Shown piece by piece: positions 30,001 to 33,000 of a stretch of 64,000 nt of DNA. Every line of letters begins with the position of its first letter. Positions within the stretch are counted from its first letter, which is position 1. Position numbers: made by a program. The stretch lies in the NCBI RefSeq assembly GCF_056712565.1, contig NZ_CM160072.1, one strand, 5' to 3'.

Positions 30001-33000
30001 AGTTTTAAGGTTTCGCTGGTGAGGCGGACATCACCGCCTAACACAATGGTTTTCGGTTTGAGAAATTCGCCATAGGCACGCCCAATACGCCAGGCAATAT
30101 CTTCATTCAGTTCTTCGCCTAATTTCCCGCGAATATCATAGGCTTTAAAGCAGGTTAATCTTTTCATGTCGTTACCCTTTTTCAGGCAATAGTTGGCCCT
30201 GACCGAAACGGCCAATTTTGTTTTTGTCGTTATTTACATCGCGGTTTCGCATTCATTGCCTGATGCGACGCTGCCGCGTCTTATCAGGCCTACAAACCCG
30301 AACCGTAGGTCGGATAAGGCGTTCACGCCGCATCCGACAAACAGCGCCTGATGCGACGTTTACACCCGTCCGTAGCGATCCGCGAAGCGCACCACATCAT
30401 CCTCTTCGAGATAAGAGCCGGAGCGCACTTCAATTAAATCGAGCGGAATTTTCCCCGGGTTTTCCAGGCAGTGCGTCGCCCCCAGCGGAATATAAATGGA
30501 CTCGTTTTCACCAAGCAGTTTGATATCACCGTCAATAGTGACTTTTGCCGTTCCTGCGACAACCACCCAGTGTTCCGCGCGGTGATGATGCATCTGTACC
30601 GACAAGCCCTCGCCCGGTTTCACGGTGATGCGTTTCACCTGGTAGCGGTCGCCCGCGTCGATAGAGTCATATTTGCCCCACGGACGATACACTTCGCGAT
30701 GTACCCGATGCTCATGGCGACCATCGGCTTTGATCTGCTCGACCACTTTTTTCACATCCTGCACCGCGTTACGGTCGGCAATCAGCACAGCATCTTTGGT
30801 CTGCACTACCACCAAATCTTTCACCCCGACGGTGGTGACCAGGCCAGATTCGGCATACACATAGCTGTTTTCAGTTTTGTGATTAATCACATCGCCGTGG
30901 CAAACGTTGCCCTCGGCGGTGTGGGCGCTGATTTCCCATAAAGAGGACCAGGAGCCGACATCGCTCCAGCCCGCATCCATCGGCACCACAACGGCATCTG
31001 CCGTACGTTCCATGACTGCGTAATCCACCGACTCTTCCGGGCAGGCCAGAAACGCCTCTTCATCCACACGAATAAAATCGAGATCCGGATCGACGGCGCT
31101 CATCGCTTTTTCACAGGCATCGAGAATATCCGGGCGATATTTTTTCAGTTCTTCGAGATAGCGTCCGGCGCGGAACAGAAACATACCGCTGTTCCAGTAA
31201 TATTCGCCGCTTGCCACATAGGCCTGAGCGGTTTCCAGATTCGGTTTTTCGACAAACTGCGCCACTTCAAAGGCCACCATATCCTGCTCACCCGCAGACA
31301 CTTCACCGCGACGAATATAGCCATAACCGGTTTCTGGTAGATCCGGCACAATGCCAAAGGTCACCAGCTTGCCCGCTTCGGCATACGGCATAGCGTTACG
31401 CACGGCGGCACGGAACGCGTCTTCATCGGCAATCACATGATCCGCCGCCAGCACCAGCATTAATGGGTCGTTCTCCGGGCTATGACGTTTTGCCGCCAGC
31501 GCCGCCAGCGCAATGGCCGGTGCAGTGTTACGCCCTGCCGGTTCGAGAATAATATTCTCGGTGAGTTTGTTCAGTTGACGCAGCTGTTCCGCGACAATAA
31601 AGCGGTGCTGCTCATTGCAAATCACCACCGGGCTTTCGCACTCCACGCCGTTCAGGCGGCAGATGGTGGTTTGCAGCATGGTGAGATCGCCTTTCAGGCA
31701 TAAAAACTGCTTGGGGTAAAGTACGCGGGAAAGCGGCCATAAGCGGCTACCGGAGCCACCTGCCATCACAACTGGATAGAGTTTCGACTGCGCCATAATT
31801 ATCCCCGAATATCATTTATAAATTGACGTAACACGTTCTCTTTATCGAGCGTGCGTTCGGCATATTCACGTGCCACCGTGTTGTGTTTGGGCAGCAGGAG
31901 CGCCTGACGAATCCCCGCCACCAGCGCCTCGACCGATTCCGGTTCAACGCAAACCGCAATGCCCGGAAAGGTTTCGCAAAGCTGTCCCAGTTCGGTGTGA
32001 GCTTCTGCAGTAATCACCGCGTTGCCGCCTACCGCCAGAATATTGGTCAGTTTCGACGGCAATACGGCATCCGCCGCGCCGCGTTTTTGCACCACCAGAT
32101 GGCAATCGCCCATCTTCAGCAGTGCGGGTAAAGCGTCATACGATTGCAGCGGGAAGAATTGCATGTTGCGCAGTCCACGCTGTTGCGCCATTTTTTCCAG
32201 TCGCGCTTTGCCGCCGCCCTGCCCGACAATGGCAAAAATCAGCGGTTCATCACGCAGGCGTTCGGCAGCTTCAATAACGTTTTCCAGCCCCTGCTTTTCA
32301 CCAATATTGCCGGAGTAAAGAATGATTTTTTTGTTATCCGGCAGGCCAAGCTGGTTACGAAGGGCATCAACATCGACATCTGCGACATGCTGAAAACGGG
32401 CAATTTCTGACCAGTTGGGGAAGAAGATGACGTTTTCTGCCGCCACGCCTTTTTCGATGGCTTTATTCATCATCGAACGCGAAATCGTGGAGACGTTATC
32501 GACGTTATGCAGTCCGCTACGTTCGAACGCCGTTGCCAGCTGTGCCACTTTGCCGCCTTTGCCTTTTCCGGCAAGGCCCAGCCCCAGCATGGCGTCCACT
32601 TCGTAATCCTGAATATGCAGCACGGTACGCGCGCCAGAGAGTTTCGCCAGCAGGCGCATTCCCGGCGTGCAAAACAGCGTTGGCACTACGCCGATAATGC
32701 GATCCGGCTTCCAGCGACGTTGCGCCATCAACGGGAAAAAACTGCTGGCGGCAAAACTGCCGAGATGCAACAGGCGTTTCAGGGTGCTCGGCTGTTTTGG
32801 CACGTACAGCGGGCAGCGCCACACCGTGGCGGCCCCCTCTTCTCGTTTGTACCGCCAGGCGGAATAGTTCTCGCCCACCTGCCATTGCGGGTAGTAAGGC
32901 GGTGCGGTAATAACCCGCACCTCATGACCTTGTGCCGCCAGCCATTCCACCATCTCTCCGGTGTATTTGCCGATACCGGTTAACTCCGGCGAGTAGTTAA

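Follow-up and report, generated by a model that had tools for sequence, protein, structure and literature searches.

A stretch of 64,000 nucleotides of the Escherichia coli chromosome (contig NZ_CM160072.1 of NCBI RefSeq assembly GCF_056712565.1), called the window here, carries the colanic acid operon, and in that operon a short repeat element lies in the untranslated spacer between the genes cpsB and cpsG. On sequence grounds the element is one unit of a type 2 bacterial interspersed mosaic element (BIME-2), made up of one Y-type and one Z2-type repetitive extragenic palindromic (REP) sequence of the dispersed E. coli palindrome family. It is real but ordinary; earlier publications already cover the occurrence of REPs at these junctions, the types to which they belong and the way they vary among strains. 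Taken at the DNA and RNA levels together, the element is very probably a tolerated, weakly modulating passenger repeat and not a conserved device that sets the stoichiometry of operon products.

The cpsB-cpsG spacer is 192 bp long (30168-30359). A preliminary description of this DNA had assigned repeat material to positions 30216-30359. REP sequence is present at 30258-30358; of the remainder, 30216-30221 belong to a separate RNA motif, the algC motif, and 30222-30257 are plain spacer. A search with a Y consensus matches 30305-30338 with two mismatches, and a Z2 consensus matches 30258-30293, with one mismatch, and also 54396-54431; neither yields a match in 100 dinucleotide shuffles. A looser core pattern adds 1078-1103 and 40772-40797, where shuffling gives an expectation of zero. 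Support that does not depend on the two consensus sequences comes from alignment to both hairpins of the Rfam naRNA4 model and to other Y/Z2 loci. The nhmmer profile was made from the hits themselves, so that its E-values for those hits are circular, and they are not relied upon. The identification as REPs relies on the consensus searches with their shuffles, on cross-locus alignment and on genome-wide repetition.

A REP is defined (PMC3333891) as an imperfect palindrome of 30-40 nt that has a stem mismatch and, at its foot, the conserved tetranucleotide GTAG/CTAC. The two cpsB-cpsG sequences are 36 and 34 nt long, both have the foot CTAC, and their 14-nt arms are 86% complementary with a two-base mismatch. 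The Z2 sequence aligns to Z2 REPs at yabI/thiQ, holC/pepA and the wzxC/wcaK junction of K-12. The same Z2 and Y sequences are found together at these three loci, joined by linkers of different length and sequence; linker variation between loci is typical of BIME-2 (PMC3333891). Among 5,426 complete E. coli genomes, the base of the allele survey, 5,425 contain matches to a query with the REP pair, at a median of 10-11 per genome (megablast, a lower bound). No annotated feature lies beneath the matches outside cps, in keeping with a dispersed intergenic repeat.

BIME-2 elements consist of inverse y and z2 REPs with short variable linkers, are arranged in tandem and vary in copy number between strains (PMC3333891, PMC1187871). 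The composition agrees with this definition: in addition to the consensus matches and the alignments to other loci, the Y REP falls on the first (Y) hairpin of the Rfam naRNA4 model (RF02564) in an alignment of high posterior. For BIME-2 a short S linker between the REPs and flanking motifs s, l or r are described; the linkers here are short (11 and 7 nt). The copy number also agrees, as 0, 1, 2 or 3 units of 88 bp are found at this junction, and the window has one unit plus a half-REP. The unit is bounded by a 13-nt direct repeat, GCCTGATGCGACG, at 30258 and 30346. A BIME-1, which combines Y and Z1 REPs with a long L linker carrying an integration host factor (IHF) site and occurs in single copy, is ruled out by the Z2 partner, the 11-nt linker and the tandem variability. 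Matches to the naRNA4 model score 39.4 and 36.2 bits, below the gathering score of 59.5, and the element is not assigned to that family.

On the mRNA, which corresponds to the minus strand, the spacer opens with the UAA stop codon of cpsB, followed by the half-REP ACGUCGCAUCAGGC, the linker GCUGUUU and the Y REP GUCGGAUGCGGCGUGAACGCCUUAUCCGACCUAC. The Y REP (30305-30338) begins 22 nt past the stop codon and has a predicted hairpin of -18.4 kcal/mol. After it come the linker GGUUCGGGUUU, the Z2 REP GUAGGCCUGAUAAGACGCGGCAGCGUCGCAUCAGGC (30258-30293, which reads GTAG...GGC on this strand, with a predicted hairpin of -20.5 kcal/mol), an A/U-rich stretch, the algC motif and the cpsG AUG. The RNA of the entire spacer has a predicted fold of -87.4 kcal/mol (z = -4.7 relative to shuffles).

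The number of units differs between natural isolates in a regular manner. Spacers that bear REP sequence have a length of 104 + n x 88 bp, with n from 0 to 3 (104, 192, 280 and 368 bp). The n = 0 form is found in K-12, ST131 and others, and there the 13-nt half-REP is the only REP material left; the n = 1 form is shared by the window and O157:H7. An allele of 101 bp without REP sequence is present in O55:H7 DEC5D and others. Rough shares come from 90 rows in evenly spaced samples of the hit lists (the rows are records, and the two samples overlap): 47% have n = 1, 16% have n = 0 and 10% have n = 2; the REP-less allele accounts for 9%, and in 14% the junction is not recognisable. Tandem units inside one genome differ at few positions, mainly in the linkers; in n = 3 alleles the head-to-head linker reads GCTGTTT or GCTGGCT (mRNA strand) in different units. 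As natural alleles range from REP-less to three units, the repeat appears to be tolerated, with at most a tuning effect.

Units may be gained and lost by slippage, by unequal recombination between the 13-nt repeats, or by TnpA-REP cleavage and rejoining, which would generate the alleles with zero to three units. The edge of the 88-bp unit reads GCC|TGAT and matches the type I site of an inverse REP (iREP), TGCC|TGAT, which TnpA-REP, the REP-associated transposase, cuts in vitro (PMC3333891). Slippage or unequal exchange gives identical products, and sequence therefore does not decide between the mechanisms. The half-REP past the cpsB stop codon (TAA-ACGTCGCATCAGGC) resembles flanking sequence that is not REP at this position, both in REP-less E. 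coli alleles (TAG-CAGTTGCATAATCAA) and in Enterobacter (TAG-CACTCCGCATCATGCC). It may have been left behind by an ancient REP, or it may be an ancestral flank from which the array arose.

Other junctions of the region are variable as well. The wzc/wcaA spacer (40684-40811) has at least four alleles, of 92, 128, 148 and 177 bp, and from one to another the REP changes its type, its orientation and its spacing from the wzc stop codon. In K-12 it is 92 bp long with one inverted Y REP, whose GTAG foot begins 24 nt past the stop; in the window it is 128 bp long, with a different REP 11 nt past the stop and a half-REP; in O157:H7 TR01 it is 177 bp long and has both REPs. The last is the undeleted form, and the window's allele corresponds to a 49-bp deletion between 14-nt direct repeats (GCCGCATCCGGCAA). 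At wzxC/wcaK, K-12 has a two-unit BIME-2 in a 275-bp spacer, and the window has a 71-bp spacer without REP. The hisI/wzzB spacer measures 182 bp here versus 95 bp in K-12. The differences between the window and its closest genome include REP-bounded indels.

The cpsG/wcaJ spacer (28662-28796) is also longer than in K-12, 135 versus 54 bp, owing to an insertion of ~80 bp that is GC-rich and palindromic (...CCCTCGCCCCATTGGGGAGAGGGCCGGGGTGAGGGG...). The preliminary description had overlooked this palindromic repeat, as it had the algC motif (30172-30221). The insertion is present at this site in 508 of the 5,426 genomes, its core matches 1-6 further intergenic places per genome, and its RNA has a predicted fold of -59 kcal/mol (z = -3.8). 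The insertion seems to belong to a second dispersed repeat family, Box C-like, inside the colanic acid operon.

Comparison with other genera, whose junctions were retrieved through CpsG homologues, points to a different part of the spacer as the conserved one. The algC motif adjoins the BIME without being part of it, and is situated directly upstream of the cpsG start codon. It is kept in all E. coli spacer alleles and in the cpsB-cpsG junctions of Enterobacter, Citrobacter, Salmonella, a Kosakonia-like contig and Yokenella. As judged from this distribution, what is conserved in the spacer as a putative regulatory element is this motif, situated at the ribosome-binding site of cpsG, and not the REPs. 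A scan of genome contigs with an algC pattern returned five Enterobacter loci only and none in E. coli, and the literature search found no paper on the motif. Upstream of the motif the genera differ. Enterobacter has one Enterobacter-type REP 13 nt past the cpsB stop codon, the Citrobacter contig has a REP/iREP pair, Salmonella and the Kosakonia-like contig have a GC hairpin only, and Yokenella has an unrelated structured sequence. The junction is thus occupied, repeatedly or persistently, by each genus's own REPs. A stem-loop conserved after cpsB across genera is unsupported: predicted hairpins are strong where REPs occur, but K-12 and the REP-less E. coli alleles have weak hairpins only (-7 to -9.5 kcal/mol), and the shuffle z is ~ -1 in Salmonella and Kosakonia. 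A Pseudescherichia junction was dropped, as it belongs to an O-antigen manC-manB pair with a 17-bp spacer.

At the RNA level the effects of REPs are known from other loci, and here the general statement of the preliminary description, that REP hairpins stabilise upstream mRNA and lower downstream expression, is well founded (Newbury 1987, Stern 1988 and Espeli 2001, as cited in PMC6061677 and PMC3158064; Harris et al., 2026, bioRxiv 10.64898/2026.03.23.713779). 3′ exonucleases are halted at REP hairpins, and at some BIMEs transcription is partly attenuated in a Rho-dependent manner (PMC6061677). Removal of the element REP325 raises expression of the downstream gene ~10-fold and lowers that of the upstream gene ~3-fold, and REP-separated tandem gene pairs have a median log upstream/downstream ratio of 0.96 versus -0.09 in controls, with wide scatter (Harris et al., 2026). 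For the cpsB-cpsG unit, it is proposed that the operon mRNA reads through the BIME and folds into two hairpins, imperfect but stable (about -18 and -20 kcal/mol). An endonucleolytic cut in the A/U-rich stretch just downstream would then leave hairpins that block 3′-to-5′ exonucleases. The wza...cpsB part of the mRNA would outlast the cpsG...wcaM part, and a modest, strain-specific bias toward upstream expression would result. Termination proper probably contributes little: AAUGAAUGCG comes after the Z2 hairpin, with no U-tract of the kind an intrinsic terminator has, and RNA polymerase on this operon carries RfaH. A scan of 29900-30700 found no promoter-like or intrinsic-terminator-like site. 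RfaH reduces Rho-dependent attenuation, which should be damped here in the same way.

RNA sequencing (RNA-seq) values are consistent with read-through. In O157:H7, an n = 1 strain, the Rcs-dependent fold induction is 13.9 for cpsB and 14.6 for cpsG, and 18.3 for wzc and 16.4 for wcaA, ratios in which a constant fractional loss would stay hidden. Each REP thus has equal induction on its two sides, and this indicates that read-through dominates and that cpsG depends on read-through from the operon promoter.

Several points weigh against this explanation of the element. The RNA-level steps given for cpsB-cpsG are drawn by analogy from other loci, where the effects of REPs are highly context-dependent and terminal REPs are not generally tied to longer half-lives (Harris et al., 2026). 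The finding of genus-own REP palindromes at this junction in Enterobacter and Citrobacter could mean that a stem-loop is selected, which would speak against a mere passenger; on the other side, the hairpins in K-12 and the REP-less E. coli alleles are weak.

The most direct alternative is that the REPs are under selection because stabilisation and attenuation together fix the proportion between upstream and downstream cps products. The well-supported general REP model, the upstream bias of tandem pairs and the 10-fold downstream effect of REP325 are in its favor, as are the presence of some REP at wzc/wcaA in every E. coli allele examined and in all strains of Iguchi et al. (2011; PMC3158064), and of a REP or hairpin at cpsB/cpsG in several genera. 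It is nevertheless considered very unlikely. Natural isolates have zero to three units or no REP at cpsB/cpsG, the wzc/wcaA REP changes type, orientation and stop distance from allele to allele, the wzxC/wcaK BIME of K-12 is absent here, RfaH loading should suppress Rho-dependent attenuation, and fold induction in O157:H7 is flat over both REP-bearing junctions. Its premise on gene order is also wrong. The REPs had been thought to separate the genes for GDP-mannose supply from downstream transferases and export genes. The operon lies on the minus strand and runs from wza to wcaM; the cpsB/cpsG REPs fall between the last two supply genes, cpsB (ManC) and cpsG (ManB) both serving GDP-mannose supply, and at wzc/wcaA the export genes are upstream of the REP. 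A role at the DNA level is another proposal: the BIME-2 might be a site of gyrase binding and cleavage that relieves positive supercoils ahead of RNA polymerase in an operon of >20 kb, or a recombination hotspot for the O-antigen/colanic acid region. That BIME-2 elements are targets of gyrase, with high-affinity binding and cleavage, has been described, as has the binding of Pol I and IHF to REPs (summarised in PMC3158064). REP-containing indels coincide with recombination junctions around the O-antigen locus (Iguchi et al., 2011; PMC3158064), and indels that set the window apart from its closest genome are bounded by REPs. Alleles with n = 0 or with no REP show that such a function is dispensable, and by the account of Iguchi et al. 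themselves (PMC3158064) REP/breakpoint coincidences are only few; this role is judged improbable.

A third proposal concerns cpsB itself. According to the mechanism of Liang, Rudd and Deutscher (2015; as summarised in PMC12306157), a REP hairpin no more than 15 nt past a stop codon stalls the ribosome. A predicted hairpin between the half-REP and the left arm of the Y REP (-18.9 kcal/mol) starts 1 nt past the cpsB stop codon; this pairing is part of the minimum free energy fold, is available in alleles with at least one unit, and as the 5′-most hairpin would form first during transcription. A terminating ribosome stalled there would bring about mRNA cleavage, tmRNA tagging and less CpsB. The wzc/wcaA REP (+11) and the alkA-side REP (+8) are within the 15-nt limit (PMC12306157); at hisI the distance is +12, by way of a REP-head remnant and not a full REP, and the dgcE side, at +18, is outside. 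Such a brake on CpsB seems rather unlikely, as the canonical Y hairpin begins at +22, beyond the limit, a fold without coding sequence prefers each REP's own hairpin, and the case for cpsB consists of predicted folds. As to a small RNA gene in its own right, of naRNA4 type and with an action in trans on the nucleoid, the sub-threshold naRNA4 matches (39.4 and 36.2 bits against 59.5) are what suggests it. These matches reflect shared Y/Z2 REP sequence only, no promoter-like site was found in 29900-30700, and the nucleoid role of naRNA4 was not reproduced (Harris et al., 2026, bioRxiv 10.64898/2026.03.23.713779). The proposal, already disfavoured, is scarcely credible. A tolerated passenger repeat with weak modulation is thus the preferred explanation.

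The element resembles several known systems. With REP325, the BIME-2 at yjdM/yjdN that is the source of naRNA4 and from whose Y and Z2 repeat the Rfam model was built, it shares alternating Y and Z2 REPs, short variable linkers, a position between co-directional genes, a strain-variable number of whole units and two stable imperfect RNA hairpins per unit. It differs in having one unit instead of six, in its linker sequences, in the half-REP fused to the cpsB stop codon at the end of the array and in its RfaH-controlled operon; the cpsB/cpsG array is known here from sequence. The K-12 wzxC/wcaK BIME-2 (two units in the 275-bp spacer) belongs to the same operon and has the same Y/Z2 architecture with near-identical REP sequences; that junction is ~4 kb downstream, its tail-to-tail linker is 19 instead of 11 nt long, and the element is absent from the window. 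As with the REP stabilisers of malE-malF and hisJ-hisQ (Newbury 1987, Stern 1988), the position is an untranslated spacer in a polycistronic mRNA and upstream-biased expression would be expected. The effects at those two loci come from deletion and decay experiments, whereas that at cpsB-cpsG is suggested by analogy, and natural alleles without REPs are common.

Iguchi et al. (2011; PLoS One 6:e23250, PMC3158064) had reported REPs of 34-36 bp at hisI-wzz, cpsG-cpsB and wcaA-wzc, and also at wcaK-wzxC and yeeZ-hisL, and indels that involve REPs. Their study covered six O157 strains and discussed recombination, not expression, and dgcE/alkA is outside their region. What the present analysis adds is the REP-less allele and the length rule of 104 + n x 88 bp, with rough frequencies of the alleles over ~5,400 genomes. 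Variable BIME-2 copy number as such has been known since the 1990s.

Consensus, fuzzy and nhmmer searches recovered the four REP clusters named in the preliminary description (hisI/wzzB, cpsG/cpsB, wcaA/wzc and dgcE/alkA), with no consensus match in shuffled sequence. In all, the fuzzy scan and nhmmer detect seven full REPs and three remnants, spread over these four intergenic junctions (Table 1). The reported placement at operon-internal and convergent junctions also holds, with two of each kind by the annotation of NZ_CP031215: hisIE/wzzB and dgcE/alkA are convergent, and cpsB/cpsG and wzc/wcaA are co-directional in the same operon. All seven full copies are intergenic and follow gene ends, never lying between divergent genes, as expected of REPs. 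The dgcE/alkA cluster begins 18 nt past the dgcE stop codon and 8 nt past that of alkA. Two feet are degenerate relative to CTAC (CTCC at 40765-40800 and CTGG at 54446-54479). The hisI/wzzB cluster has a Z1-like REP with a 16-nt linker, and is thus atypical rather than a BIME-1. No REP features are listed in the copy of the K-12 RefSeq record used, hence there are no curated REP names to attach. With 584 REPs in the K-12 genome (PMC3333891), our own estimate from 584 per 4.6 Mb puts seven in 64 kb at about the E. coli average, with no local enrichment.

Table 1. Positions in the window of the cpsB-cpsG element, its neighbours and the remaining REP sequences
Feature	Position	Strand	Basis
Z2-type REP (GCCTGATGCGACGCTGCCGCGTCTTATCAGGCCTAC)	30258..30293	+	consensus, scan, nhmmer, cross-locus alignment
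Tail-to-tail linker, 11 nt (AAACCCGAACC), between CTAC and GTAG feet	30294..30304		sequence
Y-type REP (GTCGGATGCGGCGTGAACGCCTTATCCGACCTAC)	30305..30338	-	consensus, scan, nhmmer, naRNA4 alignment
Head-to-head linker, 7 nt (AAACAGC)	30339..30345		sequence, allele comparison
Half of Z2 REP, 13 nt, abutting the cpsB stop codon (30360-30362)	30346..30358	+	exact direct repeat of 30258-30270
88-bp BIME-2 unit (Z2, linker, Y, linker), variable in number among strains	30258..30345		spacer lengths
algC RNA motif (Rfam RF02929), which includes the Shine-Dalgarno region of cpsG	30172..30221	-	78.2 bits against a gathering score of 33.8
cpsB (manC), mannose-1-phosphate guanylyltransferase, gene upstream of the BIME	30360..31796	-	annotation comparison
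cpsG (manB), phosphomannomutase, gene downstream of the BIME	28797..30167	-	annotation comparison, homologues
JUMPstart with ops (GGCGGTAGCGTG), cps operon leader	44744..44782	-	sequence
wzc/wcaA REP, start on mRNA 11 nt past the wzc stop, predicted hairpin -18.6 kcal/mol	40765..40800	-	scan, pattern, fold
wzc/wcaA half-REP (GCCGCATCCGGC on the mRNA strand)	40747..40758	-	allele comparison
hisI/wzzB cluster	992..1106		fuzzy scan, nhmmer, pattern search
hisI/wzzB REP-head palindrome remnant	992-1019		fuzzy scan, nhmmer
hisI/wzzB Z1-like REP	1027-1054	+	fuzzy scan, nhmmer
hisI/wzzB Z2-like REP	1071-1106	-	fuzzy scan, nhmmer
dgcE/alkA cluster, Z2 and Y tail to tail, 14-nt linker	54396..54479		scan, consensus search
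dgcE/alkA Z2 REP	54396-54431	+	Z2 consensus search
dgcE/alkA Y REP	54446-54479	-	fuzzy scan, nhmmer

Right after the hisI/wzzB REPs, at ~1107-1150, an A-run, a GC hairpin and a T-run are found (AAAAAAGGACAAGGTGTCACCACCCTGCCCTTTTTATTT). By its sequence this structure looks like a bidirectional intrinsic terminator common to the his operon and wzzB.

By the annotation of the near-identical genome NZ_CP031215 and of K-12, the window is a chromosome segment that extends from hisF/hisI to mdtA/B. In order it contains hisF/hisI, wzzB-ugd-gnd, an O-antigen cluster of O2/O50 type, galF, the colanic acid operon, yegH-asmA-dcd-udk, dgcE-alkA and mdtA/B. The operon, on the minus strand, reads wza-wzb-wzc-wcaA...gmd-fcl-gmm-wcaI-cpsB-cpsG-wcaJ-wzxC-wcaK-wcaL-wcaM. 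Its JUMPstart/ops leader is the context in which the likelihood of Rho-dependent attenuation at the operon REPs is to be seen, and a chromatin immunoprecipitation (ChIP) signal of RfaH extends over wza-wcaM (PMC9765446). A second JUMPstart, at 20447-20485 on the minus strand, lies in the leader of the O-antigen cluster.

Two further observations concern regions outside the operon. The yegH/asmA interval (46808-47552) has a 678-bp insertion relative to the otherwise near-identical NZ_CP031215. One open reading frame in it (46882-47220) belongs to the Gp49/DUF891, HigB-like toxin family (E = 2.8e-28), and an overlapping one (47192-47500) is HTH_37 antitoxin-like (E = 5e-22); the two probably represent a strain-specific toxin-antitoxin pair. 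Upstream of mdtA there are two SIB RNA genes on the plus strand, 60336-60478 and 60664-60806 (Rfam RF00113, 141 and 139 bits); SIB RNAs are antitoxins of ibs type I toxin genes.

For now the element is of little consequence. Both the REPs at these junctions and the length polymorphism of BIME-2 elements are in print, and the mechanism proposed is that of the textbook REP model. A useful by-product is the natural allelic series, REP-less or with zero to three near-identical 88-bp units between conserved genes, which offers a convenient test bed for the effect of REPs on the expression of neighbouring genes and for its scaling with copy number. A broader idea is that the alleles at cpsB/cpsG, together with those at wzc/wcaA, cpsG/wcaJ and wzxC/wcaK, are heritable, strain-specific 'dials' that grade upstream versus downstream operon expression, and possibly CpsB output through ribosome stalling at the hairpin that needs at least one unit. 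This is speculative and on balance doubtful; if true, natural isolates would differ in colanic acid capacity with no change in promoter or coding sequence. The cpsB/cpsG series could explain part of the differences between strains in colanic acid production.

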